The notes beneath the pieces were generated by a model, which worked only from the letters and a program-made list of their open reading frames with translations, had not been told where the DNA came from and made no database searches. From positions 2,453 to 66,452 of the forward strand of contig JAQUPG010000005.1 in the NCBI GenBank assembly GCA_028716725.1: DNA of 64,000 nucleotides, read 5' to 3'. The position numbers and the translations under genes are program-made. Shown in pieces: positions 10,745-29,400 of this stretch (position 1 is the first letter of the stretch; each line of letters opens with the position of its first letter). Source of the DNA: Patescibacteria group bacterium (GTDB lineage: Bacteria > Patescibacteriota > Patescibacteriia > Patescibacteriales > JAQTRU01).

Positions 10745-10797
10745 GGCTTTGGCTGTTAAAATTTAAAATCAAAAATTTTATAAACAATATAAATTGC

Positions 10798-11880
10798 TTA
10801 TCTCCCTATATTTTTTCTGATAAACGGGCCAAAATTCTCTGTTACTCCCACCGGCAAATATGACCATATTTTGGAAAAACATTTCTCAAATAGTTTAGAA
10901 CCCAGCGGTGATTTGCCGGATCTAATTTCTTTTGTTTTATTTGCTTTTTGACTAAATAAATAATAGGAATAATTATCTAGCAATTTCGCCCCCCATTTAA
11001 CTTTATATTGGGCTTGATTTTCATATCTTACCGGGCCGAAATCAAACCGCTTAAAATTATTCTCGGTGGCCCATTTTATAAATTCCCAATGCACTAAATC
11101 GTTAGGCCGCTTATGCCAATATCTTAAATCCGAAGCTGTTTTCGTAATCTGGACCGTCTCCCCCAAAGCAAACCCCAACAGGGCGGCCACGGTTACACCT
11201 CCGTCTTTCACGAGAAACAACTTCATTTTATCATTAAAATATTTCAACTTATTTTGGAAATACAATAAGGAATGGGGCGGGGTGCCGAACCTTTTCATTG
11301 TTTTTAGATATAAGGGATAAAAGTGGTTGCCAATCGAATCCAGAGAAGTTTCAATTTCGCATTTAAGTCCCTCTCGATAAGCGGCGTTTACGCATTTTTT
11401 AACGCTTCTGTCAAAAACATCTTCCCATAATATTTTCGCCGGGCTCAAGGTTAAAACCGCCCTTTGGTCGTTTTTTTTCTTTACGAAATAATTTAACAAA
11501 TGATCCTGCTTATCTAAATCTATGTTAGCGTTTATTTTTAAAGAAGGAACATCCGATTTGTTAATAATCTCTTTCACAAAATTAATCAGAATATCCGCTT
11601 CCGGCTTATTTATATTTTTTGTTAGAACCCCACCATAATCGGCGAAAGGCATTGAGACCAAATTTTTCATTCCCAAAATATTTTTCCAATAAAAAATTGG
11701 CAGAACAGACAATATCTGATTATCCTTTTTTAAAACAATATATTTGGCGGTATATCCGTATGTTTCCTCCAAAACTTTTTTATAAGCTATTGTTTGGGAA
11801 AATCTTCCCTCCGGATGATTATTTACAAATTCATCCCAAATACCCTCATCTTGCCTTTGTAATAATTCAACTTTTATCAT
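10798..11880 (-). CDS. FemAB-like / GNAT-fold acyl(aminoacyl)transferase
   Basis: About 360 aa with a two-lobed FemAB-like pattern (FSQTIAYKKVLEETYGY ... KRFDFGPV). Immediately downstream of a DUF3473-type polysaccharide deacetylase, a pairing known from exopolysaccharide loci. Confidence 0.5.
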   Translation of the reverse strand: MIKVELLQRQDEGIWDEFVNNHPEGRFSQTIAYKKVLEETYGYTAKYIVLKKDNQILSVLPIFYWKNILGMKNLVSMPFADYGGVLTKNINKPEADILINFVKEIINKSDVPSLKINANIDLDKQDHLLNYFVKKKNDQRAVLTLSPAKILWEDVFDRSVKKCVNAAYREGLKCEIETSLDSIGNHFYPLYLKTMKRFGTPPHSLLYFQNKLKYFNDKMKLFLVKDGGVTVAALLGFALGETVQITKTASDLRYWHKRPNDLVHWEFIKWATENNFKRFDFGPVRYENQAQYKVKWGAKLLDNYSYYLFSQKANKTKEIRSGKSPLGSKLFEKCFSKIWSYLPVGVTENFGPFIRKNIGR

Positions 11881-12760
11881 GCAGATAGGCTTGAAAATTA
11901 ATGAACTCAAAATCGTTAATGAATTTTTCTAATTTTTTAAAAGAATTTTTAATGCCCCAATATTTTAATTTTAACTTCCAACGCGGCGCCTTAACGTCTG
12001 GTATAAAATTAAAAAATTCGTGAGGATGACCGTAAAAGACAAAATAATTTTCTTTTATTAGTTGGCGCCTTACGAGCCGTTTATAAATAAAATAAGGAAT
12101 AAAACGGAAATAAAAACCTCCAGATATTGGCATCCGGCAAAAGGTAGTTAGGGGAAATTCGATTATTTTCCCCCCTAAATCATCAAAAAAATTATCTCGA
12201 GACAACCTGAACGGCAGACGGCTGGCTTTATTTACGCCGTGAGGGCCAACCTTGGCCGGGACTAAGCTGCTATCATATTTAAATCCCAATTCCTCTAAAA
12301 TTTTAACTAAATATAATGTCTGTTTATTCAAAGAAAAGCAGGGCGCCCGAAATCCAAAAATCTTTTTGCCAATGATATTCTCTAAAATACCCTTATTTCT
12401 TTTTATATCTTCGAAATACTCTTCAAATTCTCTATCATACAAAACTTCATGGCTATAGCTATGAGCAGCTACCTCGTGATCCAAGGCAATCTTTTTAACG
12501 ATCTCCGGATATTTTTCCGCTACTTTTCCGGTTATAAAAAAAGTTGCGGAAATTCCTTTGGCTTTAAGTAAATCTAAAATAGGCGACAAAGATTCTTTAA
12601 TCAAATCTGGCTGATTGATTATAGTGGATTTGTCCAAATATTTCCTTAAGAAATATGAGTCATACCAATGCTCAAAGTCAAAACTTAAAATTATTTTACT
12701 TGTCCCGCCTGCCACATTATAATGGTGGCCAAGGCGGTGATTGTTTTTTTTCTGCTCCAT
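11867..12760 (-). CDS. Polysaccharide deacetylase (NodB-homology, DUF3473-type)
   Basis: ILSFDFEHWYDS (metal/acid motif) and AAHSYSHE (H-x3-H motif). Confidence 0.7.
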   Translation of the reverse strand: MEQKKNNHRLGHHYNVAGGTSKIILSFDFEHWYDSYFLRKYLDKSTIINQPDLIKESLSPILDLLKAKGISATFFITGKVAEKYPEIVKKIALDHEVAAHSYSHEVLYDREFEEYFEDIKRNKGILENIIGKKIFGFRAPCFSLNKQTLYLVKILEELGFKYDSSLVPAKVGPHGVNKASRLPFRLSRDNFFDDLGGKIIEFPLTTFCRMPISGGFYFRFIPYFIYKRLVRRQLIKENYFVFYGHPHEFFNFIPDVKAPRWKLKLKYWGIKNSFKKLEKFINDFEFINFQAYLHDKS

Positions 12761-12765
12761 GGCGT

Positions 12766-13641
12766 CTATTTATTTAACTCCCTTCTGATAGCGGCTATCT
12801 GATCCAAAATAACCCCAAAGGAAAAAATAAAAATAGTGGCGATAAAAAGAATAATTGAAGTATCGGAAATATTGGAAAGTCTTATATCATTAGTAACGGA
12901 AACAATGGTTATCAGGGCAAACAACAGACTTATAGGAATAAAAAACCTCATCGGTGAAAAAAGAGTGATTATCCTGGTAATCAAAACAAAAGTCTTTAAG
13001 GCATCACGGGGAGAAACTGTGCTTTTGCCAACCCTTTTATTAACCCTTATGGGGATATACCTGACATTATACCCCGCCTTTAAGAAAGCCATGGTTGTGG
13101 TCGTTGAAAGCGAAAAACCGTTCGGGTAGAGATGAACATATTTATTAAACTTTTCCCTGTTAGCAAGTCTTAACCCGGAATTCAAATCCGGTATTTTAAA
13201 ATCAACCAGATAACTGGCTAGCCATTTTAATATTTTTTTGCCCGGTTGTCTTGCCCATGGGCCCTGACAGCCCTGGCGTTCGCCAACTACCATATCATAT
13301 CCGTCCCTCGCCTCCATTAATCTTTTAACATCTTCGGGGTTATGCTGACCATCGCCATCATAAAATATCAAATATCTGCCGCTGGCCTTCTCCGCTCCCA
13401 ATTTTAAGGCTGAACCATAACCTTTGTTATAAGGATTGCGGAAAATTTTTAGCTCTTCTAATTTTAATCCGTTCAAAATATTATAAGTGTCGTCGGTAGA
13501 GCCGTCATCTATGGCTAATATTTCATAAGGAGAATCAATTGCACTATCCTTCAGATAAGCTGATAAATCAAGAACAACCTTTTCGATAGCCTTGGCTTCA
13601 TTAAAAATCGGGATGATTATACTGTATTGGATCTTATCCAT
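12766..13641 (-). CDS. Family 2 glycosyltransferase, polyprenol-phosphate sugar synthase type (DPM1/GtrB/ArnC-like)
   Basis: YSIIIPIFNEAKAIEKVV, DDGSTDDT, DGDGQHNP, plus C-terminal TM helices. Confidence 0.85.
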   Translation of the reverse strand: MDKIQYSIIIPIFNEAKAIEKVVLDLSAYLKDSAIDSPYEILAIDDGSTDDTYNILNGLKLEELKIFRNPYNKGYGSALKLGAEKASGRYLIFYDGDGQHNPEDVKRLMEARDGYDMVVGERQGCQGPWARQPGKKILKWLASYLVDFKIPDLNSGLRLANREKFNKYVHLYPNGFSLSTTTTMAFLKAGYNVRYIPIRVNKRVGKSTVSPRDALKTFVLITRIITLFSPMRFFIPISLLFALITIVSVTNDIRLSNISDTSIILFIATIFIFSFGVILDQIAAIRRELNK

Positions 13642-13646
13642 AATTT

Positions 13647-14822
13647 TTATTTAATAAATTTAATAATATTTATAGCCCTCTTCTCCCAAGTATAATCTTT
13701 AACGTCCTGGTAAGCTTTCTTTAAAATTTTATCAGCTAAAGCCCTATTTTGCAACACTCCCTTAATACCCTTGGCTAAACTCTCCGGATCATCGGGCTTA
13801 ACAAAAAAAGCGTTATCTTCGTTTAAAATCCCCCTGACTGCCGGCAAATCCGAAGTTATTATCGGGCGTCGACTGGCCATATACTCGAACATTTTTATGG
13901 GTGACATGTAAAAAGCGTAATGCTTTTTATACGGGAAAGGCATCAGTAGAATATCGCAAGCTTTTTGATAAACTGCCAGTTCTTTCATACCGACCCTGGG
14001 AATTAAAAAAATATTATTTTCAACTCCTAGATTTTTGGCCATCTCCCCGTAATAGCTAATATCGGCCTCATTCCCGCCAATGGCCAGAAAAAGAATGTCC
14101 TGTCTGCTATTTAAAATAATTTTTAAAGCTTCCAATATATCTGAAATTCCCTTATCCATACCCATGGTTTTAAAACTACCGGTGTAACCCAAAATTACTC
14201 CCCCCTTAGGCAAGTCTAATTTTCCCCTCGCCTGCTCCTTGGTCATACTGATATCGAATTCTTTTAAATCCACCCCGTCGGGCGCTATTAAAATTTTATC
14301 AGCTGAAATTCCACTCTCAATTAATCCGTTTTTTATAAAATCCGTCAGGACAATCAGTTTTTTCGCCTTTGCCCAAATTTTTTTATGGATTTCAGAAATA
14401 TTTTCCGGCAAAGAATGCAATTCTAAAATAAAATCCTTAAAAAATAATCCGGCCAACTGCTCTCTCGTATATAAAATATCATATCTTCTAAAAACTAAAT
14501 AAATTTTGGCCGCGGCCAAAAAACTTATAATCTGGATCCAGAAGCCTGCTCGGCCGAAATTGACTAAATCAAGAGAAAATATTTTTGTTATTCTAAATTT
14601 TTCCCTTACGCCATAAAACGAAAAGGGACTGGCTTTAATTTTAGAAAATCTCCAGGGAACAATAAGCCCTAATTCTACTTCCGCCTCCGCAAAAGCTTCG
14701 CCCATTTTCATTATTTGCCGGCCATGGGCTTTTTCGGTTGGAATTCTGGCGTTAGCCAGATAAATCATTTTCACCCCGTTAGAAGTTTTAATTAAATTAA
14801 AAATTTTCTCATTTTTTTTCAT
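13647..14822 (-). CDS. Family 4 (GT-B) glycosyltransferase
   Basis: 391 aa with two Rossmann halves. The C-terminal half has a GT4-like FEYMASRRPIITSD segment. The start may be the internal MIYLANARIP (14768). Confidence 0.75.
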   Translation of the reverse strand: MKKNEKIFNLIKTSNGVKMIYLANARIPTEKAHGRQIMKMGEAFAEAEVELGLIVPWRFSKIKASPFSFYGVREKFRITKIFSLDLVNFGRAGFWIQIISFLAAAKIYLVFRRYDILYTREQLAGLFFKDFILELHSLPENISEIHKKIWAKAKKLIVLTDFIKNGLIESGISADKILIAPDGVDLKEFDISMTKEQARGKLDLPKGGVILGYTGSFKTMGMDKGISDILEALKIILNSRQDILFLAIGGNEADISYYGEMAKNLGVENNIFLIPRVGMKELAVYQKACDILLMPFPYKKHYAFYMSPIKMFEYMASRRPIITSDLPAVRGILNEDNAFFVKPDDPESLAKGIKGVLQNRALADKILKKAYQDVKDYTWEKRAINIIKFIK

Positions 14823-14852
14823 AATTACACCTAATTATGCTTATCTTCCCCC

Positions 14853-15527
14853 TCAACAGAAGATATCTACCGGATTTCTAACGGGGTATTTTTTAACTTT
14901 AACGACAAACGATAAGGCAAATAAAGAGGGGCGCCACAAAGCTAAACGCCCAAATAATCTGCCTACAATTGGCTTAGTTTTCCAAAAAGTATTTATTCTT
15001 AATTCCGCTATGTCTAAATTATTTTTCTTTAAAAGGCTCTTCAAAACCGGATAACTAAACCAAAAAGCATGGCCTTTATTTTCTTTATTGTTTTCTGGCA
15101 CCCGCCCCCTTGCCATCTGGATTCGGGCCGGCAGGGAGCTGAAATTAGGCACGCTTATTATTATGTACTTCTTGGATATCCGTTTGGCCTCGGAAAGCAA
15201 CTTTTCCGGGCAAGGCAAATGTTCTAAAACATCAAGAATGGTCACATAATCAAAAGAGTTATCCGCTATCGGCAAATTCTCCTGGCTACCATCAATAAAG
15301 CAGGCTTCTAACCCTTTCATTTTACATTTCTCAATGGCGGTTTTAGAGAAATCAACCCCGCTTCCCTTTATTCCTTTCTTTCGAAGCAACTCCATAAATA
15401 AACCGTCGCCACAACCCAAATCCAAAACTTTCCCCCCGCCGATAAGATCTAAAGCGGCCCTGTGCCTATAAACCAAGGGCTGGTTCCGGTTTTGCCAATA
15501 TTTATTTGAAAAAGTTTTAAAATTCAT
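14853..15527 (-). CDS. Class I SAM-dependent methyltransferase
   Basis: Motif I VLDLGCGDGLF; DYVTILDVLEHL. Confidence 0.8.
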   Translation of the reverse strand: MNFKTFSNKYWQNRNQPLVYRHRAALDLIGGGKVLDLGCGDGLFMELLRKKGIKGSGVDFSKTAIEKCKMKGLEACFIDGSQENLPIADNSFDYVTILDVLEHLPCPEKLLSEAKRISKKYIIISVPNFSSLPARIQMARGRVPENNKENKGHAFWFSYPVLKSLLKKNNLDIAELRINTFWKTKPIVGRLFGRLALWRPSLFALSFVVKVKKYPVRNPVDIFC

Positions 15528-15575
15528 ACCTTAGACGGCCAGAAATAGTAAAAAAACTCTCCTGGACTGGTCAAG

Positions 15576-16379
15576 TTAATCTATTTTTCGGGCGGCGATA
15601 ATTATTGACCAGCTTAAATTTTTTACAAAAGGAATTTTAGCCAATAAATTATCTATTTCTACAAGGGGTTTTAAAAAAAAACAAGGAAAATATTTTACAA
15701 AAGAGAAAATATCAGGAAAACCAAAGGGGAAAGCCAAAAAGCCGAATCGATCAACTTTCATAATTTCAAATCCGTTATCATTAAGTAAACTCTTAAGCTC
15801 GCTAAAATAAAAAGATTTATGAGTGGCACTGAAATGGCTATTTAACCGATAGACGATTTTTCTTATTAGCTTATGTAAGACCGTGCTCACTGGTTCGGAA
15901 ATTATTAATAAACCGCCGGGCTTTAAAACTTTATGTATTTGTTCAATGCCCCGGGCTGGGCTGGGCAGATGATGAAAAGCGCCTCGGGCGATAACCACGT
16001 CAAAATCATTTTTTAAATCTAAATTTTCCGCATCCTGCTGATGTAAAATAAAATTTTTACTGTTCCCATAATTATGCTGACCGACTTTTATCATCTCCCG
16101 GGAAATATCAATGCCAGTATATTCTGTCTGGGAAAAACGGTTTTTTAGAACGGGATAGAGGCTGGCTGTACCGCAACAATAATCAAGGACTTTTTTCGGC
16201 TCCGATTTTAAATTATCTAGAATTTTATTTAACCAATAATCCTGATAATAACGGGAAAATTTATTCCGCTCCCTGATACTGTCATATTTTTTAGCGATTA
16301 CTTTATCATGCAACCTTAATTCTTCCAATTTTTCTCCCGATAAATTATTAAGATCAATGGACATAAAAAATATTATCAA
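15576..16379 (-). CDS. Class I SAM-dependent methyltransferase
   Basis: Motif I VLDYCCGTASL; DVVIARGAFHHL; KPGGLLIISE. Confidence 0.8.
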   Translation of the reverse strand: MIIFFMSIDLNNLSGEKLEELRLHDKVIAKKYDSIRERNKFSRYYQDYWLNKILDNLKSEPKKVLDYCCGTASLYPVLKNRFSQTEYTGIDISREMIKVGQHNYGNSKNFILHQQDAENLDLKNDFDVVIARGAFHHLPSPARGIEQIHKVLKPGGLLIISEPVSTVLHKLIRKIVYRLNSHFSATHKSFYFSELKSLLNDNGFEIMKVDRFGFLAFPFGFPDIFSFVKYFPCFFLKPLVEIDNLLAKIPFVKNLSWSIIIAARKID

Positions 16380-16382
16380 AAA

Positions 16383-17330
16383 TTATTTATTTTCTATTAT
16401 TTCCTTAATGTCATAAACTTTATCTTTAGTCGCGGCAAAATAATTTTTAGACAGCATATCGGCTAATAAGCCAAAAACGAAAAATTGGACACCAATTAAA
16501 AATCCAAACATAGATAATTCCGTTAAAGCTGTATCTGATAAATCCTGGGCATTGAAGATCTTGCCATAAACAGCCAAAAGACCGGCCACAATAGAAATTA
16601 AAATTAAAGCTAAACCGAAACTACCGAATAAATGGAGGGGACGGCTGGCATATTTTTTCCAGAACCAAATTGAAATCATATCCAGGTTGCCTTTAATGCC
16701 TCTTTTCCAGTTATACTTGGTTTTACCGGTCCGGCGGGGTCGGTGGTCAACCTCCAATTCGCCAATTTTATAACCTTTAATTTTAAGCAGGGCCGGAATA
16801 AAACGGTGCATTTCCCCTACCAAGTCCACATAATTAAAGCATTCTTTCTTATAAACCTTAAGAGTGCAGCCGCTATCATGAACCCCGTCATTGACAAGAA
16901 GCTTTCTTACTACCGCGGCGCATCTTGAAAAAAATTTCTTTAAAAAAGGATCCTGACGGTGCTTGCGCCAACCGGAGACTACATCCAAATCATTACGTTC
17001 CAGTTTTTCTAATAATTTTAAAATGTCATGGGGATTATTCTGCCCATCCCCGTCTAAAGCGGCGACATATCTGCCTTGCGCCGCCTTAATGCCCGCATCA
17101 AGAGCGGCTGTCTGGCCAAAATTTTTTCTAAAATTGATAATTTTAATCGGGGACAATTTCCTTAAATTCTCCAGAGTCTTATCGGTTGAACCGTCATTAA
17201 TAAAAATAATCTCAAAAGGCCTATCTAATCGCCGGCCGGTAGCCATGATCTCATGATACAAATCAATTACTGATTCCGCTTCGTTAAAAGCAGGCACGAT
17301 TATTGATAGATACATATCTTTTATTTCCAT
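16383..17330 (-). CDS. Family 2 glycosyltransferase, polyprenol-phosphate sugar synthase type (GtrB/ArnC-like)
   Basis: LSIIVPAFNEAESV, NDGSTDKT, DGDGQNNP, and two C-terminal TM helices (LHLFGSFGLALILISIVAGLL; FGFLIGVQFFVFGLLADML). Confidence 0.85.
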   Translation of the reverse strand: MEIKDMYLSIIVPAFNEAESVIDLYHEIMATGRRLDRPFEIIFINDGSTDKTLENLRKLSPIKIINFRKNFGQTAALDAGIKAAQGRYVAALDGDGQNNPHDILKLLEKLERNDLDVVSGWRKHRQDPFLKKFFSRCAAVVRKLLVNDGVHDSGCTLKVYKKECFNYVDLVGEMHRFIPALLKIKGYKIGELEVDHRPRRTGKTKYNWKRGIKGNLDMISIWFWKKYASRPLHLFGSFGLALILISIVAGLLAVYGKIFNAQDLSDTALTELSMFGFLIGVQFFVFGLLADMLSKNYFAATKDKVYDIKEIIENK

Positions 17331-17409
17331 ATTTTAAATGGATTTATTTACTAAAATATAATTAATATTTTAAAAAAGAGGCGGCCAAACATATTTTAAG
17401 GCCTAAATT

Positions 17410-18492
17410 CTACGGGATTGCTCTGATAATATTTTTTACTAAATTTTCAAGGCTATGATTTTTTACCACTATCTCCCTTAAACTTTTCCCTATTGTCTGA
17501 AATTGTTCAACCGGCAAATTATAAATATGTTCTATTTTTTCCGCTAAACCCTTAAAATCTTTTTTGGAATACATCAACTCTCGGCGATAATCTCTCAAAA
17601 CTTCAAGCATAGCCTCATTACAGGTTATAACCGGCAACTGGCAGGCCATAGCTTCCACCATGGCTTTATCTAAACTGCCGGTTTGCCCCATATTAACGAA
17701 AATGTCTGCCTCTTGCAAAAATGGCACTATATCTTTATTCGCTATGGGACCAATAAATTTTACTTCATTTTCTAAATTTTTATCTTTTACTGATTGGGAT
17801 AATTTATTAAAATAATTTTTATCAGATTCGGTGGCTGGCCCGCCAATAATTTTTACGTTTATTTTTATTCCTTTATTTTTTAAAATTTCAACAGCTTTAA
17901 TCAGGGTTGCGTAATCCTTAGACGGGGAGATTCTGCCTATAGAAATTATCTTAAATTTACTACCCGAAATCCGAAGTCCGAAATCCGAAGTCCGAAATTT
18001 GTTCACGTCTATTCCTTGACCGATTATTTTAATTTTACGACTCTTAAGCCGGCAACCGCTGGCTGTAGAAGTAAATATAATATTAACTAGCCTTTCAGCA
18101 ACCTTCAGATAAAAAGGAACGTAGCCATGAGCATACCATAAAGTAATTTTTTTTCCGGCTAGTTTCCAAAAAACTCCTCCTAAAACAACATATTCAGGAT
18201 TCATATGCACAAAAACCTTATCGTAATTTTTTCTTTCCCGGATTATATAATTGTAAAATCTAAGGATAGCTACTAATTTTCGTATGAAATTAAAATATTT
18301 ACCCAAACGCAAGAATTCGTCCTTGCCCAAAGACAGTACTCTTACATTCCCGGGAAACTCGTATCGGCCCCGCTGTAAACAAATTACCGTAACTTTTTCG
18401 CAATGTTTGGCAAATTCCTCTATCCAACTATGCATAAACCCTAAAACATCGTCATCAATATCTACCTTTTGGGTTAAAATAAGCAATTTCAT
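17410..18492 (-). CDS. Family 4 (GT-B) glycosyltransferase
   Basis: 360 aa; GRISPSKD...; E-x7-E-like region SLDKAMVEAMACQLPVITCNE. Confidence 0.8.
   Translation of the reverse strand: MKLLILTQKVDIDDDVLGFMHSWIEEFAKHCEKVTVICLQRGRYEFPGNVRVLSLGKDEFLRLGKYFNFIRKLVAILRFYNYIIRERKNYDKVFVHMNPEYVVLGGVFWKLAGKKITLWYAHGYVPFYLKVAERLVNIIFTSTASGCRLKSRKIKIIGQGIDVNKFRTSDFGLRISGSKFKIISIGRISPSKDYATLIKAVEILKNKGIKINVKIIGGPATESDKNYFNKLSQSVKDKNLENEVKFIGPIANKDIVPFLQEADIFVNMGQTGSLDKAMVEAMACQLPVITCNEAMLEVLRDYRRELMYSKKDFKGLAEKIEHIYNLPVEQFQTIGKSLREIVVKNHSLENLVKNIIRAIP
17964..17998. repeat. 2.5 copies of a 14-bp tandem unit CCGAAATCCGAAGT inside the GT4 coding sequence
   Basis: Read directly: ccgaaatccgaagt ccgaaatccgaagt ccgaaat. 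It encodes the inter-domain loop RTSDFGLRISGS. Confidence 0.8.
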
Positions 18493-18505
18493 AATTTTTA
18501 ATCAA

Positions 18506-20793: not shown

Positions 20794-21351
20794 TTACTTA
20801 CCTGTATCTGATCCAGGCACTGCAGCTGTGCCAATGTTTTCTTGTGCTACAGCGTTATCGGTTTGGTCTATCCCGCTTTGGGGTTGAAGAAAAGCAGGAC
20901 CAACATTTACCAAAACATTCCTTGACGGGCTATAGATAATTGCTTTTTTGGCCTTATTATAAACCAAAACTTTGTCGCCCTTTATTGATCCCTGATAAAA
21001 CGCCTGACCTGCGGCCAGCTTGTCAGGATCTGTGATTGTAGCGACTATCGGAGTTTCACCTTTAGGGAGAATAATAAACTGTCCAACTTTATTAAGCAAA
21101 TCCTGCGTTTCTTTCTGGGCCACAGCCTGCTGACCCTCTACGGTGGATAACTGTTTTAATTGAGCGTTAGTGTTTTGATATTGCACAAAAGACCATGCGC
21201 CAAATGCAATTACGGCAATAAAAATAATTCCAAAAATAATTTTAATTGGTGACATGGATGGCAGGTTTAGCATTTTGAAAAACGATCGTTTCCTTCTACC
21301 GATTTCTAAATTTTGCCCTGTATCTTTCGTTGTATTTTTTATTAAAGCCAT
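20794..21351 (-). CDS. Hypothetical single-pass membrane-anchored protein
   Basis: 185 aa with an N-terminal basic stretch, TM helix IKIIFGIIFIAVIAFGAWSF, then a soluble domain. Directly downstream of the fibre gene. Confidence 0.5.
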   Translation of the reverse strand: MALIKNTTKDTGQNLEIGRRKRSFFKMLNLPSMSPIKIIFGIIFIAVIAFGAWSFVQYQNTNAQLKQLSTVEGQQAVAQKETQDLLNKVGQFIILPKGETPIVATITDPDKLAAGQAFYQGSIKGDKVLVYNKAKKAIIYSPSRNVLVNVGPAFLQPQSGIDQTDNAVAQENIGTAAVPGSDTGK

Positions 21352-21417: not shown

Positions 21418-24400
21418 TTATGTTTCCGGAGAAGACACAGGCGGCGATTCTTCTAATTGCGATGTCGCATCAACAGACGGCTCTGGCGCCGGAGGTTCAG
21501 GCTCAGCAGCCGGATTTGTGTTGCTTCCTTCATCGGGCGCTGGCAAATCAACTGAATCTGTATTGCTTTCCGATGTTTGCGCAGGCTCATCTGGCGCGCT
21601 TACATCAGAATCTTCAGATTCTGTATCTGAATCAATTGAAGTGTTTGACTGATCATCTGGCGTTGCCATGGTATCTGCCTCAGAAGCTCCTGTATTTGGT
21701 GAAAACTCTGAACCAGATGGGAATGAATCAGACGAGTGGCTGTCGGAAGTACCAAAAACGTGCCAGTTAAAATTAATATCAACATTATTATACGCTGGCG
21801 ATATTTTAATAGTAAATCCGTTTGCATCTGTTTTAGAAACAAAATAACGATCCAGATTAACGTCACTCGCCAAGGTAAGAGTCACTACCGGCTGGTTCTC
21901 ATACGGCTCGGCAAACTCTACCGTCACTTCATCAGAATCTGCTGGCACCGTGGCAGTACCAACTGTGTCGCCGCTAAAAGCTATGTGCTTTTTAAATGCA
22001 ACATTTTCCGTAAAAGCGAGCGATTCATCGTATGCATCTATAAACCGGCCGATGGTGCCATTAAAAATCAAAGCCGAAGACGTGCCACCCGAATTCGTTT
22101 TTAATTCTTCTTCGGTCGGAATTTGAAGCGCAAGCTGCAACTTTTTAATTTCTTCCTGCTGCGCTTTTACCGCCCCCACAATGTATGGCACAAGCCCGCC
22201 CGTAGCCAAAAATTTGCGCTGGGTCCCATCACCCCACGTACTCGTCGTAACCAAATCCGGGAAGAGCAACTCCACCTCCTGAGCGATAAACCCAAATCTC
22301 AATGGCGCATTGTCATCATCCGTATTCCATTGATATGATACCGGCCGCAAATCAGCTACTCTTGCCAACAAATCGTTGATGTCCAAAGAACTAATATCTT
22401 TTTTCAACGTTATATCAGAACCGCACGATGGCGACCCCGAATCAGCCGTAAAATCGCAGGTGCTATTTTCATCCTGAAGCCTGACCAAACTCGTTCCATC
22501 CGTTTCCGATGCGCTTCCGACATGCAATTTAACAGCCGGGTTTGTTTGGCTAATTCCGACATTGCCGTCTCTATTTATCACCAGTATTCCCTGATTGGTC
22601 GTCGTGGCTATTTGGAAGAGATCGGTCGTCGCGTTCGTCGCGTTGACTGATAACCGATATGCCGGCGTGCTCGTGCCGACACCAACATTGCCGCTAAGAT
22701 TAGTAATTCCGGTACTGTTCCCTATAGTGATCAAGCCAGCATGAGAGCTCGCTTTTATAATATTAAATGTTGGTCCTCCTGTTGTAATTTGAAATGCACT
22801 ATTGGCGTTAACATTATTTGCAATGTCTGAATAATAAAAGTTTGATGGCGTATGTTCGCTGTACAAACGAATACCCGTAGAGCTTTCGTTTTTATAAAGT
22901 GTCAGCATTTGGCTCGGAGTGCTGGTCCCTATCCCCACGTTGCCGTCGGCATCAATCACAAAAGGGGTTGTGTCACTTGCTTCATCATTGACCGCTAACG
23001 AATTACCAGTGCCAGTATTAGTAATTGATAAGACGTTACTACCGGTAACAGCAATGTCGGTGGAAGCATCCAGAGTCAGTGAGTCCGCCAATTCCGAGAA
23101 ATCCAATGTGTTGGCTGTGACATAGCTTGAATCAATAGTAGCGGTTGTCCCTAAAATTCCAGCAGCAGTATTCGTCACCAAGCCAGCCGTTGATAAACCG
23201 GAAAACGTGATGTCACCAGAAGAGGTGATCCCGGTAGCGCCAGCGATAGTGCCGGCATTGGTAATACCGCCGGAATTGACATTCAGCGCCCCAGAGGTAA
23301 AGGTTATCCCGGTTACTCCGGTCAAAGCACCGGAGTTAATTATCAGTCCGTTAACGGTATTTGTACTGGTCGGGGCGGAAATAGCACCGGAGGTGGTAAT
23401 ACCGGTAGAGGCCGTAATGGCGCCGGTGGTATTAACTTGGAAAGCATCTCCTGCGCCCACGGTCAAAAGAGCTTGCGGTGTAACATCGCCAATGCCAACT
23501 CTTCCTTCTCCTCCAAAGTCCTTGGTAATTGTCATCCAGGTTTGGGATAACCCCTCCGTATCCTGATTAGCCATGCCAAAAAAGATTCCGTTAGGATAGG
23601 TGAGTGGATCCACACCGTTGGTAATATATCCTGAGCCAATATATACAGAGCCTATTCCCCACATCGAATCAGTTAAAGAGGGGGTTCCTTCTGCTTGGAG
23701 ATAAATACTTCTTCCGTCCTGATTATCAGACGACTGCCCGATGACTGAAAAAAATCCATTAGTGGGGCTTTTGCCAATACCAACACTTCCGTAATTGAGC
23801 AATGTACTTGGCTCAACAAACAAAGTGCTGCCAACGCTTAAATTTTCCGATCCTATGCTTACACTGCCGTCTGCGTCAATCGTAAACGGAGTTGCGTCAT
23901 CGGCTTCATCATTTATAACAAATGTGTTGGTGTCACCGGTGTTGGTGACAGAAACAGGTCCTGTCGTGGTAATGCCAGTGGTGGCAACAATGGCTCCTGT
24001 TGAGTCAACCTGGAAAACGCTGCCGGCGCCAACTGATAAAAGTGAAGTGGGATCGGTTGTTCCAATTCCGACATTGCCGTTGCCTCGAGCCAGAATAGTT
24101 TCGCCGGTGCTGCTTAAGGTTCCGGCAACATCAAAGTCATATTCGGGGGAATCCGTATTGATACCATAGCGATTGGACCGGGCGTCGTAATGGAAAGAAT
24201 TGCTGCCTATCTGCACCCCGCCGGGAGCTGTAATGGTCAGCTGCCCTGTATTGTTTAAAGAAAAGGTGGCGTTGGCTATGTCCGGACCTAATTTGTAGAT
24301 GTCCGCGCCGCTGCCATCACCGGCGTATAAGTCTCCGTTGAAATCATATATTGCGTATAATTTGTCACCGGAATACGCCGATTGTGTCCAGGTTGTTCCA

Positions 24401-25980
24401 TCTGACGATTCATACATTTTTTGCGATGCATTGGTTCCGGCGTATAGTTTACCGTTAAAAGCCCTCAGGGTAGTTATACTCGTGCTCATACCGCTGATAT
24501 TTAAATCGCCATCTCCGTTATAGGCCACTCTTGTCCAGGTATCTCCATCAGAGGATTCATATATCTCAGCGCCGCCCAGGCCTCCGCCTCCGGCGTAAAT
24601 TTTTCCGTTAAAAGTGGCCAGAGTTTCCAGACGATCCAGGTCGGCTGACATTTCAACGCCATCAGAATCAGCCACTTGTGTCCAGTCCGAGCCATTGGCC
24701 GATGAGTAGATTTCCGCGGAGTTATTACTTCCGGCAACAGCGGCAAAAATTTTTCCATTGAAACCTTTTAGGGCATAAGTTCTAAATAAACCAGCCGTTA
24801 TTTCCACTCCATCGGAATCAGCTACTTTCGTCCAGGTGGTGCCATCGGATGATTTGTATATCTCGGCTGAACCAGTATCATAACCGGTCCCTGCATAAAT
24901 ATTCCCATTGAAAGCTTCCAGGCTAAGCACTTGGTCTAAACCGGCCAAATCACCCACCTTCGTCCAAGTGGTGCCGTCTGGGGATGAATAAATTTGGGCT
25001 TTGCCGCCGCCGCTACCGGTACCGGCATAAATTTTTCCATTGAAGGTAGTTAAAGCGCGTACATCATTTAATCCCGCGTCCATATCCCCGTCATCAGGAT
25101 CAGCGACTTTTGTCCAAGTGGTGCCGTCGGATGATTTATGTATCTCGGCCTCGCCGCTGCTATAACCGCCGGTTCCGGCATATATTTCATTGTTAAACGA
25201 GGTAAAGGCATACACAAAATCCAAGCCGCTGGTTAACTCTAAACCGGCGCTGGCTACTGTTATCCAGGCGCCGTTGCCGGAACTTGCGGTTGACATGCTG
25301 ATCACGGATTGGGTTGAGCCGTAAACATCAAGGGCATAATTCGGATCGGTCGTACCTATCCCCACCTTGCCTCCGTCTTTCACGAAGATTCCGTTATCTC
25401 CGTCATCAGTCAACAGTAACCCGGCGCCATCATAGGCTTTCAGTTGATCAATGTTCAACACATCACCGTCGCGGCCTGCCAATAATGCATATGATGATGT
25501 GGCGGTACCATCGAAAAGTTCGGTGTTAAACGCGTAAGGCGCGGTACCGAGTTGCGCCCGGGGAGTCGCTTCGCTATCGCTTCCTACCTTTACCCCCACA
25601 TAGAGCTCACCGGTTGAAAAATCAAGGTAGCTTGGAAAAGCAGTACATGCCCCAAGCTCCACGGTAAAATAGCCTTCGGAATCAGGATCAATCTGCACGC
25701 ACGAGCCGCTGGCCTGATCGTATGTTTCCGTCCACAAAAGAGGCCCAGCTTCATTGGGCGTATCGCTGGGGGAGCCGCTGGAAGCGTTATTATAAATAGA
25801 AAATTGGATAGTAATAGAACTAGTCACTGGATCGCTACTTGCATCTCGCAATCGCCCTTGATAATTAATAAAAGAGGGCACGGCGGCATTTATTTTATAG
25901 GTTGGCAAAAACATCAAAATGGTAAGAGCCAAAATTGATACAACGTAAATTCTAAATTTTTTTCCTCCTGTCTTGAGCAT
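21418..25980 (-). CDS. Secreted fibre protein: Asp-box (BNR) repeat propeller, tail-fibre-like GIGT repeats, internal Peptidase_S74 intramolecular-chaperone domain, acidic disordered tail
   Basis: 1520 aa with a signal peptide (ILALTILMFLPTYKINAA). About seven 48-aa repeats containing S-S-D-G-T-T-W-T (roughly nt 24300-25220). Recurring N/GVGIGT(T/S)xP...L.V motifs. S74-type segment DITLKKDISSLD...LRPVSYQWN...RFGFIAQEVELLFPDLV...AVKAQQEEIKKLQ (roughly nt 22125-22425). Confidence 0.8.
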   Translation of the reverse strand: MLKTGGKKFRIYVVSILALTILMFLPTYKINAAVPSFINYQGRLRDASSDPVTSSITIQFSIYNNASSGSPSDTPNEAGPLLWTETYDQASGSCVQIDPDSEGYFTVELGACTAFPSYLDFSTGELYVGVKVGSDSEATPRAQLGTAPYAFNTELFDGTATSSYALLAGRDGDVLNIDQLKAYDGAGLLLTDDGDNGIFVKDGGKVGIGTTDPNYALDVYGSTQSVISMSTASSGNGAWITVASAGLELTSGLDFVYAFTSFNNEIYAGTGGYSSGEAEIHKSSDGTTWTKVADPDDGDMDAGLNDVRALTTFNGKIYAGTGSGGGKAQIYSSPDGTTWTKVGDLAGLDQVLSLEAFNGNIYAGTGYDTGSAEIYKSSDGTTWTKVADSDGVEITAGLFRTYALKGFNGKIFAAVAGSNNSAEIYSSANGSDWTQVADSDGVEMSADLDRLETLATFNGKIYAGGGGLGGAEIYESSDGDTWTRVAYNGDGDLNISGMSTSITTLRAFNGKLYAGTNASQKMYESSDGTTWTQSAYSGDKLYAIYDFNGDLYAGDGSGADIYKLGPDIANATFSLNNTGQLTITAPGGVQIGSNSFHYDARSNRYGINTDSPEYDFDVAGTLSSTGETILARGNGNVGIGTTDPTSLLSVGAGSVFQVDSTGAIVATTGITTTGPVSVTNTGDTNTFVINDEADDATPFTIDADGSVSIGSENLSVGSTLFVEPSTLLNYGSVGIGKSPTNGFFSVIGQSSDNQDGRSIYLQAEGTPSLTDSMWGIGSVYIGSGYITNGVDPLTYPNGIFFGMANQDTEGLSQTWMTITKDFGGEGRVGIGDVTPQALLTVGAGDAFQVNTTGAITASTGITTSGAISAPTSTNTVNGLIINSGALTGVTGITFTSGALNVNSGGITNAGTIAGATGITSSGDITFSGLSTAGLVTNTAAGILGTTATIDSSYVTANTLDFSELADSLTLDASTDIAVTGSNVLSITNTGTGNSLAVNDEASDTTPFVIDADGNVGIGTSTPSQMLTLYKNESSTGIRLYSEHTPSNFYYSDIANNVNANSAFQITTGGPTFNIIKASSHAGLITIGNSTGITNLSGNVGVGTSTPAYRLSVNATNATTDLFQIATTTNQGILVINRDGNVGISQTNPAVKLHVGSASETDGTSLVRLQDENSTCDFTADSGSPSCGSDITLKKDISSLDINDLLARVADLRPVSYQWNTDDDNAPLRFGFIAQEVELLFPDLVTTSTWGDGTQRKFLATGGLVPYIVGAVKAQQEEIKKLQLALQIPTEEELKTNSGGTSSALIFNGTIGRFIDAYDESLAFTENVAFKKHIAFSGDTVGTATVPADSDEVTVEFAEPYENQPVVTLTLASDVNLDRYFVSKTDANGFTIKISPAYNNVDINFNWHVFGTSDSHSSDSFPSGSEFSPNTGASEADTMATPDDQSNTSIDSDTESEDSDVSAPDEPAQTSESNTDSVDLPAPDEGSNTNPAAEPEPPAPEPSVDATSQLEESPPVSSPET

Positions 25981-26000: not shown

Positions 26001-27143
26001 TTATTCATTACTTTTTGAAAACTTATTATCTTTTGATACGCCTTCTAATTTTTTGTCTATCTGCTTAAGTTGTTTTTCTATTTTTAGTTTAGCTATTATC
26101 AATTCTTTCCGAGTCTTTTGCAGAGCTATTTCTTCTTTTTTGAGCATTTTTAACTGCTCCCGTTTGCGGTAATCGGAAGGCTGGCGGCGGGCCAGCAAAA
26201 CAATAATTACAACTAACAACAAAATAATTACAAATCCCAGTAAAGCGGTTGTGCCAACCCAGAACCAGATATTCAGGTAAAACGGCATGGGCATTTCTTC
26301 GGTCGGGGTAAATTCCGGAACCTGTGTAACGGCTTCCTCTGCCGGTTTCTCTTCTTTAGCCGGCGGCGCGAAACAAACTTCGTTAAGTTTATCCATGGTC
26401 GTTTTTTGCACTAATCCGGTACCTTTCGTAAATCCCCAAGGAGCGAGAATGTCTTCACGGTAAAATTCCTGGAAATCCATTACTGACTGTTTAGTCTCCA
26501 CGTCAAAATTTCCGGTAATATTACCTTCAAAAAAACCTTGATTTTTCAAACAAATCTGTAAATATGCGACTTCATCATTCCGATCGCCGGAACGCATGTT
26601 TTTCGTGAATAAAAATCCTTCCGGTGTGGACGTGGGTACGGCTCCCGGCACTTCAACTGTTGTCGGAGTAGTTATAACAAAACTAGCTGTTTCCAAATTA
26701 GTAGGAAGAGCCGTTCCCAATCCGTCGTTCGCCAATACTTTGCCCGAAGTTACGGAAAGAGTTGCCTGCCCTTGGGACTTGGCGCGCAAAACAATGGTCG
26801 CCAGTTTGCCTGCCGAACCGGTATAGCCGTGCCCAAGCATTACCCCTTCAAACTGCGCTCCATTTCCGTTTATTTGCGGTTCTTGAGCCCAAAAATCTAT
26901 AATTGAGCCTGATTGCGATATTGAGACCAATTCAAGATTATTATTTGAGGATTTAATGGTCGCTTCTACGGCATTCATTTCCTTTTCGCCGCTAGAAACG
27001 AATATGCTTACCGTAAATTGCTTTCCCGCCTCATATACGCCCGTTGACGGCGCGAAATAAATAGAGGCCGCTTTTGCCAATCCCGGCAACAAAAAAAATA
27101 ATAATCCAAAAAATAAAACTAGTTCCCCCTTTTTAAAAGACAT
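26001..27143 (-). CDS. Type-I membrane protein: cohesin-like domain, PG_binding_1 domain, TM helix, cytoplasmic coiled coil
   Basis: Signal peptide ending LAKAAS. Cohesin-like pattern FAPSTGVYEAGKQFTVSIFVSS...MNAVEATIKSS...LELVSIS...GKLATIVLRAKSQGQATLSV...VLANDGLGT. Peptidoglycan-binding pattern GDRNDEVAYLQICLKNQGFFEG..TGNFDVETKQSVMDFQ. TM helix WFWVGTTALLGFVIILLLVVIIVLL, then a K/E-rich heptad tail. Confidence 0.7.
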   Translation of the reverse strand: MSFKKGELVLFFGLLFFLLPGLAKAASIYFAPSTGVYEAGKQFTVSIFVSSGEKEMNAVEATIKSSNNNLELVSISQSGSIIDFWAQEPQINGNGAQFEGVMLGHGYTGSAGKLATIVLRAKSQGQATLSVTSGKVLANDGLGTALPTNLETASFVITTPTTVEVPGAVPTSTPEGFLFTKNMRSGDRNDEVAYLQICLKNQGFFEGNITGNFDVETKQSVMDFQEFYREDILAPWGFTKGTGLVQKTTMDKLNEVCFAPPAKEEKPAEEAVTQVPEFTPTEEMPMPFYLNIWFWVGTTALLGFVIILLLVVIIVLLARRQPSDYRKREQLKMLKKEEIALQKTRKELIIAKLKIEKQLKQIDKKLEGVSKDNKFSKSNE

Positions 27144-27358: not shown

Positions 27359-28264
27359 TTAACCCTTGCGTTTCCGAAGCAGCCAAAATATTATCAATAC
27401 TGAAACAAATGCTATAACGAGGACAGCAGTGACCAATAATGCCGGTGCCTTTGATGGCGGAATCGCCCCTTGTTTTTCCGGAACACGTACACTTACACGC
27501 ACATTTCCCTGAACATCTACCGCTCTTACATAAATATAACTATAGAGCGATTGATCATGCAGACAATAGGGGCTTTCAGTTCGTTCCCATTCGCCGGCAG
27601 TCTCATCGCTCAATTTTGTTTTGGTTTCCAGGATTTCATAATGATCAATGCCGGATCCTTTATCCTGGGCGATAAATACGGCAAAAGCGTCTCCGTCAAA
27701 AAGCGCCGGATTTTTCGCGACTTCTATGGTAAAAGGCTCCGGCGGCTCATAATCGCTAACCTCTTCTTTAAATTCGGTCAAAGGCGTGTTCAAATCGACA
27801 TTTAAAGCTAACTCTCCGGAAGAAACCGGCGCAGGAGTTCCTTTGCCGTCATTAAGCAATACAGCGCTATCGAAAAAATCAATGCTGCCGCTGCCAGCTG
27901 TGGCTGCTTCAGCCACGAAGGAAAAAAGCAGGCCGTTTGACCCATGCCAGCCACCCGGTACTATTCCCGAAAATACAATATCATTTCCGTCAAGATGCGG
28001 CCGTTCGGCCCACAGAGAAACAAGTGAATTACCGTCACGCAAAGAAGACACCCTTATGACAGGAGGAAACTTGATCGTTCCCTCAAAGGCATTCACGGTT
28101 TCGCCCTCTGAATTTACCCTCACCGTTACTTCAAACCGTTGGCCCGGAGCCATGGTCGTCTGCCGTGTTTCCGCAAAAAGACGGGCGGCATCCGTCTGAA
28201 AAGGGAAAAAAAACGACCCAATTATAATCGTAAACCAGAATAAAAATGAAAATCGCCTACTCAT
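27359..28264 (-). CDS. Type-I membrane protein with cohesin-like domain and C-terminal TM anchor
   Basis: Signal peptide MSRRFSFLFWFTIIIGSFFFPFQTDAA. Same cohesin-like pattern as the 26001 gene (APGQRFEVTVRVNSEGETVNAFEGTIKF...VSSL...GLLFSFVAEAATAGSGSIDF...VLLNDGKGT). C-terminal helix ALLVTAVLVIAFVSVLIIFWLL followed by RKRKG. Start moved to the ATG at 28264. Confidence 0.65.
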   Translation of the reverse strand: MSRRFSFLFWFTIIIGSFFFPFQTDAARLFAETRQTTMAPGQRFEVTVRVNSEGETVNAFEGTIKFPPVIRVSSLRDGNSLVSLWAERPHLDGNDIVFSGIVPGGWHGSNGLLFSFVAEAATAGSGSIDFFDSAVLLNDGKGTPAPVSSGELALNVDLNTPLTEFKEEVSDYEPPEPFTIEVAKNPALFDGDAFAVFIAQDKGSGIDHYEILETKTKLSDETAGEWERTESPYCLHDQSLYSYIYVRAVDVQGNVRVSVRVPEKQGAIPPSKAPALLVTAVLVIAFVSVLIIFWLLRKRKG

Positions 28265-28305
28265 AATATTCGGCTCATGGGACAGTGATTTCTGATAAAA
28301 TAAGA

Positions 28306-29400
28306 TCATCCTGTCCAATAAAAAGCCATAATGCTTAAGTCAATGATATTTATGATTCCGTCGCCGTTCAAATACGTGGCTTCATACGCCCGCATCGTAT
28401 CATTCAAAGTCTTTTTGTACCAATAGCCGGCGATGGAAAAATCAATGATGTTCACGCGGTCGTCTCCATTCAAGTCGCCCTGTTTGAGGGATTCGGTCTG
28501 ATCATAAGGAATATTTTTTTCTCCCACCACGAATCCGATAGTGCGGCTGAAATCGCTGATACTATTGTCTTTGGCCGATTTTGCTCTCGTTTCGTGATCG
28601 CCCTTAACTAAAAGGGCCGTGTCTAAATTATAAAGAAAAACACCGTCATTGTCGGCATTAACGGTATGAAAAGTTTCATTATCCGAAGCTACCCCGATAG
28701 TCACCTCGCTTTCAGGAACGGTTTGGCCGAATATTGCCAAGTTATCGCCCTTGTGCACCTCTTTTTTATCAACCGCCAAAGTCGGGGACAGAAAAATTCC
28801 CCCAACCTGCGTTGTAAACCCAGAAGTAACCTCAATAGTGAATGGCTGGAATTGCGACATTCGGTCGTCTTTATCCAGGCCGACAATAACGAAAACATGG
28901 CTGCCGACATTGATGCCGCTTAGTGTAATAGAAAAAAGGGCGTCCGGTCCGGCTATGGTTGTGCCGACAACCTGTCCGTCCTTAAGTAGTCTGACCGTGC
29001 TTAAAGGATAAGCCCGGCCATTAAAGGAAACTCCTGCTTCGGCCGGCGATGTCAAACTGCCACCACCCCCTCCGCCACCGCCATTATTATTATTTTCAGT
29101 GGATATTTCTTCACTGGAAGACTCTTGGGTCAGAGCCCAAACGCGCCCTTGTTTTATCTCATAATTAGCGCTAGTAGAATTTGTCGCCGCAGGCAGTCCA
29201 ATTGCGGCTTTCACATCATAATTATCAGAATCTGTTTGTAACTCAACAAACCCCATAGATCCCTGGTCTATCAGGTAATGTTCACTAGTGGCTGAAGTGG
29301 CGGCGATGGCAAAGAATGGAATAATAATTATGTACGCGAAAAAAATTAAAGGAATTACAATTGGAACCCAGGCACTGGGTTTTTTCAGTAATGATTTCAT
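28306..29400 (-). CDS. Secreted protein with Ig-like repeats and a C-terminal type-I dockerin
   Basis: N-terminal hydrophobic signal/anchor, an N4-G8 linker, and two duplicated EF-hand-like segments: GDLNGDDRVNIIDFSIAGYW and YLNGDGIINIIDLSIMAFYW. Confidence 0.7.
   Translation of the reverse strand: MKSLLKKPSAWVPIVIPLIFFAYIIIIPFFAIAATSATSEHYLIDQGSMGFVELQTDSDNYDVKAAIGLPAATNSTSANYEIKQGRVWALTQESSSEEISTENNNNGGGGGGGGSLTSPAEAGVSFNGRAYPLSTVRLLKDGQVVGTTIAGPDALFSITLSGINVGSHVFVIVGLDKDDRMSQFQPFTIEVTSGFTTQVGGIFLSPTLAVDKKEVHKGDNLAIFGQTVPESEVTIGVASDNETFHTVNADNDGVFLYNLDTALLVKGDHETRAKSAKDNSISDFSRTIGFVVGEKNIPYDQTESLKQGDLNGDDRVNIIDFSIAGYWYKKTLNDTMRAYEATYLNGDGIINIIDLSIMAFYWTG

Follow-up and report, generated by a model that had tools for sequence, protein, structure and literature searches.

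A non-terminal Peptidase_S74 chaperone, an H-type-lectin-like knob and an acidic tail close a phage-fibre-like protein encoded on a Patescibacteria chromosome

The DNA analysed here, referred to as the window, is a stretch of 64,000 nucleotides (nt) from an ultrasmall bacterium of the Patescibacteria group (assembly GCA_028716725.1, contig JAQUPG010000005.1, positions 2,453 to 66,452), and this study concerns one gene in it that encodes a giant fibre protein. According to PMC12206443, much of bacterial diversity belongs to Patescibacteria, those in culture live attached to other microbes, and little is known of how they recognise and hold their hosts beyond type IV pili. An earlier note, made from the sequence, had placed at 21418-25980 a protein of 1520 amino acids (aa) combining a signal peptide, Asp-box repeats, G-I-G-T repeats and a Peptidase_S74 (S74) chaperone. 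Its central claim was that the chaperone is not C-terminal and is followed by a beta-rich module and an acidic tail, from which it was argued that cleavage would free a separate polypeptide. An open-reading-frame check returned an ATG-initiated frame of 1520 aa at exactly these coordinates on the minus strand; all four parts were found where they had been placed, and the central claim stood. The features of the fibre gene, from the N-terminus to the C-terminus of the product, are as follows.

25885..25980, minus strand: signal peptide, aa 1-32 (MLKTGGKKFR, then IYVVSILALTILMFL, then PTYKINA/A), by inspection and hydropathy
25456..25884, minus strand: conserved N-terminal domain (N-domain), aa ~33-175, with an INYQGRL motif and Cys94/Cys112, recognised through homologues
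24271..25230, minus strand: Asp-box beta-propeller insert, aa ~251-570, with seven repeat units, by Pfam DUF6242 and a BamI-like match
22420..24270, minus strand: fibre shaft, aa 571-1187, with GNVGIGT-type repeats and a variable tip carrying a Cys1175-x10-Cys1186 loop
22123..22419, minus strand: Peptidase_S74 chaperone with C-terminal helix, aa 1188-1286, by Pfam, profile, Foldseek and AlphaFold
21979..22122, minus strand: linker or neck, aa 1287-1334, pLDDT 44-57 as a monomer, with a weak x-V-x-F-x-x-x periodicity
21748..21978, minus strand: H-type-lectin-like six-strand beta-sandwich, aa ~1335-1411 (~77 aa), below called the knob, by AlphaFold, Foldseek and H_lectin
21421..21747, minus strand: acidic low-complexity tail, aa 1412-1520 (109 aa), with 14 D and 13 E and neither K nor R

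The S74 chaperone was recognised by sequence, motif and fold. Pfam Peptidase_S74 (PF13884; cut-off 22 bits) matched aa 1188-1244 with 57.7 bits and an E of 1.4e-15, spanning model positions 1-57 of 58, and the match began right at an S-D-x-x-x-K motif, S1188-D-I-T-L-K1193 (Ser1188 codon, nt 22417-22419; Lys1193 codon, nt 22402-22404). Together with the helix behind it, this part covered nt ~22123-22419, where ~22125-22425 had been proposed. When the whole fibre was compared with PDB sequences by phmmer, no match was obtained and profiles were needed; a profile of the S74 region matched the solved chains 8jov, 6f45, 7dc3 (MYRF), 8hqz (T5 pb1) and 3gud (GA-1), and the SDxxxK motif of the fibre was in register with SDERLK and SDRRIK of solved S74 chains. 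In an AlphaFold model of aa 1141-1419, the S74 domain and its 26-residue helix (segment 120-145 of the model) had a pLDDT of 85-95, and the best Foldseek match of this part was the MyRF ICA domain 7dc3 (E 2.3e-5, TMt ~0.6), with the K1F chaperone 3gw6 also returned. The Ser-Lys dyad, which the earlier note had suggested should be located in an alignment, was thus present, and Ser1188 and Lys1193 were invariant in 69 of 69 alignable proteins that carry the same C-terminal cassette (S74, knob and tail; see below), as were G1230 and A1233 of a GxIAQE motif. The invariance of the dyad suggests that catalysis is under selection. By sequence, motif and fold, this region is a member of the Peptidase_S74 family.

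The position of the domain sets it apart from its best-known relatives. The solved S74 chains matched here terminate no more than ~10 residues past the helix, at the extreme C-terminus as in the phage type, whereas 234 residues follow the helix in the fibre. Phage chaperones (K1F 3GW6, T5 pb1 8HQZ/4UW8, GA-1 3GUD, 8JOV and 6F45) share with it the Pfam S74 match, the SDxxxK motif, the fold and a GIGT-type stalk upstream, but they lack this extension and are assembled in a virion, while the fibre is predicted to be secreted by a cell. A non-terminal S74 is also found in MYRF/MrfA (ICA, 7DC3), where self-cleavage, which depends on trimerisation, yields two functional polypeptides (PMC3742440, PMC3828593, PMC8326128). 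Unlike the fibre, MYRF is eukaryotic, starts with a transcription factor and carries a transmembrane anchor and a lumenal domain behind its S74.

The 234 residues past the helix, put at about 240 in the earlier note, consisted of the linker, the beta module and the D/S/E/P-rich tail. The linker had a mean identity of 20% and 44% gaps among homologues, and its x-V-x-F-x-x-x periodicity occurred in a subset of homologues only and carries little weight. Within the cassette, conservation was highest in the knob (41% identity, 2% gaps), in a set that was chosen by knob similarity and is biased accordingly; among the 69 alignable members, D, G, F and P positions were invariant and Y, W and H positions nearly so. 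When the knob core was modelled alone with 46 homologues, AlphaFold returned a six-strand beta-sandwich (pLDDT 92.6, pTM 0.81). A sequence profile of the knob gave only noise against PDB (E >= 0.3), and a fold search was needed. Foldseek matched 4q56, 2ce6, 2ccv, 3wmp and 2vm9 at a probability of 1.00 (E 0.005-0.2, TM scores ~0.5-0.6), and the fold neighbours included the agglutinins of Helix pomatia (HPA) and H. aspersa, SLL-2 and discoidin II. Pfam H_lectin (PF09458) matched 38 of the 46 homologous modules at E <= 1 (best E 6.7e-6), and the fibre's own knob did not reach the cut-off of 24 bits (16.8 bits, with E 0.0076 for the isolated module). By its modelled fold and this family-level signal the knob is H-type-lectin-like, though under the Pfam cut-off.

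With the H-type lectins (HPA 2CCV/2CE6, SLL-2, discoidin II and the CofB tip) the knob shares the six-strand beta-sandwich and the family-level Pfam signal; it differs in that its own copy falls under the cut-off and in its position past a self-cleaving protease, which is undescribed for those lectins. HPA and discoidin domains are trimeric, and trimeric H-type lectins would fit the place of the knob, since it stands after a helix that is expected to be trimeric. The H-type lectin domain of CofB, a minor pilin of enterotoxigenic Escherichia coli (ETEC), has likewise been described as trimeric (PMC6048534). The closest structural neighbours in PDB were the cyanophage Pam1 tailspike, in its C-terminal domain (7EEA; 30% identity and an rmsd of 1.9 A across 74 columns), the C-terminal knobs of the LKA1 (gp49, 4RU4), phi297, K1-lyase (7W1D) and Sf6 (2VBM) tailspikes and the R2 pyocin fibre (6CL6); among viral structure models, the matches included many phage tail-fibre proteins and proteins named 'H-type lectin domain'. 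The tailspike and pyocin knobs are trimeric modules that form the C-terminal ends of fibrous receptor-binding proteins. They belong to the mature, uncleaved protein and follow a beta-helix, whereas in the fibre a protease-chaperone lies in between. The tail behind the knob has a net charge of -27, and neither a transmembrane segment nor a sorting motif was found in aa 1412-1520.

The recurrence of this ending was examined with aa 1276-1412 alone as the query. An exhaustive HMMER search returned 646 representative proteins at E <= 1e-3, whose conserved core corresponded to aa ~1320-1411 and usually lay close to the C-terminal end in proteins 1000-4000 aa long, with ~100 residues after it. All counts for the cassette refer to the best 150 of these 646 proteins, chosen by similarity to the knob module. 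The order S74, lectin-like module and tail was found in 86 of the 150, with S74 ~25-30 aa upstream of the module, and in these 86 proteins the tail past the module was mostly ~70-200 residues long. Nearly all homologues carried, past the module, a tail comparable to that of the fibre in length and composition, and these homologous tails were uniformly acidic (E 14%, S 13%, T 11%, P 10% and D 7%, with K+R below 2%). Many of them (for example P0063, P0075, P0082, P0087 and P0163) opened with an 'AKLTVSDGT..I.LV' strand, which is missing in the fibre and its nearest relatives, where the acidic tail directly follows the knob. The comparison with homologous fibres that the earlier note had proposed thus showed the extension to be kept, and the two outcomes that it had named in advance as refuting (a chaperone lacking the Ser/Lys pair, or homologues all ending at the chaperone) were not what was seen.

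Every named member of the cassette set came from Patescibacteria (Magasanikbacteria, Falkowbacteria, Paceibacterota and 'Patescibacteria group'), on contigs of up to 1 Mb, a taxonomy that rests on cluster names. When 50,697 phage records were searched by tblastn with S74 plus module as the query, only the S74 part was matched, at a coverage of no more than 48%. A pattern scan of IMG/VR with a narrow alignment found none, and a scan of a genome collection with the same alignment found two loci only; both scans say little on distribution, and a word-indexed homologue search with the module profile found one protein. We conclude that the cassette is a widespread, undescribed C-terminal ending of cellular phage-like fibres in an under-studied phylum.

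These data bear directly on whether the gene could be a phage or prophage tail-fibre gene, as its phage-fibre framing in the earlier note implied, or a fusion or assembly artefact with spurious read-through past S74. PHROG tail-fibre families matched aa 843-1286, and the cluster mates of the fibre at NCBI are annotated as 'tail fiber domain-containing protein [Patescibacteria group bacterium]', both of which would suit a phage gene. However, the window contains ligA, gatA, hisS, relA/spoT, an AddA-type helicase-nuclease gene, tRNA-Ser, glycosyltransferase genes and several genes for giant surface proteins with T4SS-pilin-like heads, nearly all on one strand, and no phage genes flank the fibre in the window. 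The window is therefore bacterial chromosome, not phage. In addition, the product carries a signal peptide, its GC content at third codon positions (GC3) is 0.447, the level of gatA and hisS, and the phage records cover at most about half of the query, as given above. The identical 1520-aa product was found on two independent assemblies with the same neighbours; because of this, and because the cassette order recurs in 86 clusters, the extension is genuine and not an artefact. An origin in phage, or by artefact, is effectively refuted. The housekeeping neighbours and the Patescibacteria membership of all named relatives speak for a cellular protein.

The closest characterised system is the MAT (mosaic adhesive trimer) fibre family of Bdellovibrio bacteriovorus. 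In these proteins a signal peptide precedes a conserved N-domain of ~130 aa, presumably located at the cell surface, and a trimeric fibre with an S74 or beta-sandwich/lectin tip, and self-cleavage by the S74 of Bd3182 has been shown by experiment and is lost in the S782A variant (PMC10769870). Like the S74 subgroup of MATs to which Bd3182 belongs, the protein studied here is a cellular, non-phage protein with a signal peptide, a conserved N-domain (beta-rich in MAT), a long fibre (trimeric in MAT), an SDxxxK chaperone-protease and a mosaic exchange of its middle and tip. Unlike MATs, which end in one or the other, it carries S74 and a lectin-type end in tandem, followed by an acidic tail; it also differs in its monoderm-like Patescibacterium host and in the propeller inserted in its shaft.

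At the N-terminus, inspection showed an n-region rich in K and R, a hydrophobic core of 15 aa whose Kyte-Doolittle mean reached 2.7, and an I-N-A/A site, in agreement with the signal peptide first proposed. The N-domain was common to 20 of the 150 module-bearing relatives (E down to 1e-46), always right behind the signal peptide, and the N-termini of the other relatives were unlike that of the fibre; a word-indexed homologue search returned two close homologues of the N-domain, at 64-69% identity. The N-domain is presumed to be the cell-proximal end of the fibre. The protein deposited at NCBI (MDD5290948.1, 1347 aa) starts at codon 174, with V read as M, and lacks the signal peptide and the N-domain (codons 1-173, window 25462-25980); the longer frame is supported because its N-terminal 147 aa have homologues.

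Seven FNGxIYAG repeat units of 39-51 aa made up the predicted propeller (aa 256-570). The earlier note had proposed about seven Asp-box repeats of 48 aa: the number of units agreed, their length varied, and the Asp-box S-x-[DN]-G-x-x-W was found in six of the seven (aa 283, 333, 377, 427, 476 and 525), the seventh being truncated. The repeated Asp-boxes suit a sialidase-type propeller of 6-7 blades; a sialidase identity was not supported. Pfam DUF6242 matched above its cut-off (E 1.4e-12; 48.4 bits against 29) and an NCBIfam BamI-like propeller model matched at E 6e-16, yet below its cut-off, whereas no BNR or sialidase model in Pfam or NCBIfam matched the fibre at E <= 1, so that a sialidase function lacks support from any model match. 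Among the 150 relatives, only this fibre had the propeller. The stalk contained six G-[IV]-G-[TDK] motifs (aa 207, 638, 734, 829, 1016 and 1100), which, together with the PHROG matches, agree with the tail-fibre repeats that had been described. Pfam matches to F5_F8_type_C, Phage_base_V, Big_8 and FlgE D1 were all under cut-off and were disregarded.

The 47 residues preceding the cleavage site were the most variable region among homologues, with a mean pairwise identity of 19%; such variability is expected of a tip, since a specificity determinant would vary. The fibre contains just four Cys, in two close pairs, Cys94..Cys112 (25645-25701) and Cys1175..Cys1186 (22423-22458). The C-x10-C loop of the second pair stops two residues ahead of Ser1188, and several homologues likewise have a pair of Cys ahead of the cleavage site. 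The position of this pair suggests that the mature tip may be stapled by a disulfide.

Three genes near that of the fibre were also characterised.

20794..21351, minus strand: 185-aa single-transmembrane protein, downstream, homologous to the gene downstream of the fibre at locus L006 (E 1e-17)
26001..27143, minus strand: cohesin-like upstream neighbour with a signal peptide, a cohesin-like domain, PG_binding_1 and a C-terminal transmembrane segment, by Pfam
28306..29400, minus strand: Big_6 and dockerin protein with an S-x-N-Y N-terminal motif, first gene of a putative operon, by Pfam

The cohesin-like gene ends 20 nt ahead of the fibre start codon on the same strand, and its product is a candidate anchor partner of the fibre. 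It is paralogous to the gene at 27359-28318; both encode cohesin-like membrane proteins, and together they separate the dockerin gene from the fibre gene. The earlier note had placed the fibre near cohesin/dockerin genes in wording that is unclear, and what can be said of that claim is that the fibre lies 20 nt downstream of the cohesin/peptidoglycan-binding gene. At three further loci whose fibres share the N-domain (L005, L006 and L007), a common trio of genes encoding proteins of ~260, ~850 and ~335 aa was found upstream (L005 1534-5903, L006 1642-5907 and L007 1402-5882), and in L005 and L006 the ~260-aa first gene was homologous to the Big_6 and dockerin gene, with the S-x-N-Y motif and a dockerin-like C-terminus. 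The two cohesin-like paralogues are what the window carries instead. Judged from these domains, the fibre may be anchored by a cohesin-dockerin-type system. At a Falkowbacteria locus (L008, 1-17844), a cassette fibre with a different N-terminus was found with ligA, gatC and gatA upstream and a group-1 glycosyltransferase gene downstream, a setting that matches that of the window. The recurrence of the N-domain-linked neighbours and of the ligA/gatCA/glycosyltransferase setting suggests a vertically inherited surface-structure locus in which the N-domain docks to anchor proteins.

An orientation opposite to this one was also considered, in which the knob and the Pro/Ser/Thr/Glu-rich tail form the wall-associated end, like that of many monoderm surface proteins, and a trimerisation-dependent S74 cut frees the N-terminal fibre. 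In composition the tail is similar to the segments with which surface proteins of Gram-positive bacteria span the wall. The ligand of a conserved lectin could be a self glycan that stays constant, which would be consistent with the conservation of the knob, and the S74 part had its best structural match in the MyRF ICA domain; in MYRF, the non-terminal S74 can serve as a switch that frees the protein from its C-terminal anchor (PMC3742440, PMC3828593, PMC8326128). We nevertheless regard such a release as improbable. No MYRF-type transmembrane anchor downstream of S74, no other hydrophobic anchor and no LPXTG or other sorting signal was found in the fibre or in the tails of the 69 homologues; it is the N-domain, not the C-terminus, that co-varies with membrane- and wall-anchored neighbours; and phage and MAT fibres have their N-terminus on the proximal side (PMC10769870).

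The analysis establishes the architecture, the folds, the catalytic motif, their recurrence and the phylum; that the fibre trimerises and is cleaved, which of its ends faces the cell, and what the knob and tail do are inferences, set out below. The reading that we favour, and to which we give about an even chance, is that the protein is a Sec-exported, trimeric, phage-fibre-like and MAT-like surface fibre anchored to the cell, in which the cassette nucleates folding and is then cut off. The N-domain would hold the fibre at the cell surface, probably via membrane proteins of the cohesin-like, dockerin and peptidoglycan-binding kinds whose genes lie just upstream; the shaft would be a triple beta-helix of GIGT repeats, from which three Asp-box propellers would be displayed sideways. 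Once exported, the cassette would trimerise first and then template the folding of the shaft from the C-terminus towards the N-terminus, after which the Ser1188/Lys1193 dyad would cut the chain at Ser1188. The 333-aa C-terminal fragment, with a net charge of -42, would leave as a trimer, and the variable, disulfide-looped tip would become the distal end. The knob and tail would then form an enlarged pro-domain, acting as an extra trimerisation clamp and as a solubilising or transiently tethering element. The invariance of the dyad argues for this reading, as does the finding that the tip before the cut is the most variable part and the knob the least, a comparison biased by how the proteins were selected. 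That the N-domain is the anchor end is supported by its constant position behind the signal peptide and its co-occurrence with a conserved set of upstream genes.

Several points weigh against this pro-domain reading. The AlphaFold models are of monomers only, and the signal peptide was assigned by inspection and hydropathy, not by a dedicated predictor. The MAT_N model (Bdello_MAT_N, NCBIfam NF053851) matched the N-domain at E 0.041, with 13.7 bits against a cut-off of 60, so that membership of the MAT family in the strict sense is tentative. The reading does not account for the steady retention of a ~100-aa acidic tail, and the knob, in this biased set, is conserved more than any other part of the cassette. 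Moreover, the knob and acidic tail also end giant proteins in which S74 was not detectable. In its place ahead of the knob stood a coiled coil (P0042, P0046, P0099 and P0148), a 'GRVPVKV..GDYL..AMKA' domain (P0057, P0078, P0093, P0166 and P0174) or other modules (P0139, P0143 and P0144; P0038 and P0054; P0051 and P0097), which makes at least four kinds of non-S74 module. A Pfam scan of these modules returned a single sub-threshold Peptidase_G2 match (E 0.026) and nothing else, so that a general rule by which an auto-cleaving chaperone precedes the knob found no support. In proteins without S74 the knob cannot be a cleaved pro-domain, which argues that the knob and tail have a function of their own.

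In a rival reading, the knob is retained as the working, distal receptor-binding tip of the fibre and S74 serves only for trimerisation, the chain being either uncleaved or cleaved yet held together non-covalently. The fibres that carry coiled coils or other modules in place of S74 would then simply show the knob and tail as part of the mature protein. The fold of the knob is that of the C-terminal domain which binds the receptor or caps the end in phage tailspikes, in pyocin fibres and in viral proteins annotated as H-type lectins, its conserved D, G, F and P and near-invariant Y, W and H positions would be in keeping with such a role, and in ETEC the trimeric H-type lectin domain of CofB stands at the pilus tip (PMC6048534). 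On the other hand, a dyad kept in 69 of 69 proteins implies that catalysis has been selected. In Bd3182 and MYRF, cleavage parts the fragment bearing the chaperone from the mature part. In K1F endosialidase and T5 pb1, cleavage likewise separates the chaperone fragment from the mature part. A host-specific receptor-binding domain should also vary, whereas the knob varied least and the region before the cleavage site most, again with the ascertainment bias of a set chosen by the knob. On balance, we consider a retained knob rather unlikely, though it deserves serious weight.

A further possibility is that the cassette is a Patescibacteria-specific two-product device, in which a single precursor, cutting itself at the cell surface, would leave an anchored fibre with a newly exposed, variable tip and, in addition, a free trimeric acidic lectin. 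The free lectin could act in the interaction of the episymbiont with its host by priming or marking host glycans, or by capping the tip until contact. We regard this as speculative and doubtful; if true, it would be a general, undescribed component of the attachment of the Candidate Phyla Radiation (CPR) to hosts, while a cassette that is merely an enlarged pro-domain would be a modest architectural variant. In either case, the fibre is one of many giant surface proteins that resemble phage fibres and together form a large family. All members of this family that carry a name are Patescibacteria, and public annotation lists them just as 'tail fiber domain-containing protein' or 'hypothetical'. 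A literature search, whose coverage was incomplete and which is no proof of novelty, returned no paper linking Patescibacteria with S74 fibres. The cassette widens the known uses of S74 past phage fibres, MAT fibres and MYRF, and the conserved C-terminal cassette and the N-domain that travels with surface-anchor genes offer handles for experiment.

Some relatives differed in what followed S74 or in their labels. In P0001, P0002, P0003 and P0005, the closest S74 relatives, S74 was likewise non-terminal and was followed by a two-Cys module (..EELC-x6-8-C.T..qL..lL) and a low-complexity tail; because this module differs from the knob, at least two types of post-S74 extension exist in these organisms. 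P0004, from Dojkabacteria, terminated right past the helix. Weak multi-copy knob matches at ~30% identity were found in tandem arrays of giant Bacteroidota proteins of the gliding-motility/PKD type (P0053, P0068, P0073 and P0156; for example in Lishizhenia), and these probably represent a distantly related Ig-like repeat and a different module. The closest match in the genome collection (locus L003, CAZRUM010000044.1, 5 kb), with 56% identity to the knob, came from a bin labelled 'uncultured Gammaproteobacteria', and the N-domain homologue P0198 carries the label 'Proteobacteria bacterium'. Either these are mis-binned Patescibacteria contigs or the family extends beyond the phylum.

Base composition also distinguished parts of the window. 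As the earlier note had stated, the fibre gene is richer in GC than the neighbouring glycan island (0.477 versus 0.32-0.39). The excess lies in codon position 2, since G, A, S, T and P make up 47% of the residues; a foreign origin was rejected, given that GC3 is normal and the high GC is an effect of amino-acid composition. The compositional outlier was the glycosyltransferase-rich glycan island itself (window 1-18500), with a GC3 of 0.31-0.39 against 0.41-0.48 for housekeeping genes, and this island, rather than the fibre, may have been horizontally acquired or be fast-evolving. Two giant secreted proteins encoded at window 46383-52073 (1896 aa) and 52090-54141 (683 aa), each with a T4SS_pilin-like N-terminus followed by Ig-like/fn3/TIG domains, were GC-rich at codon position 2, like the fibre.

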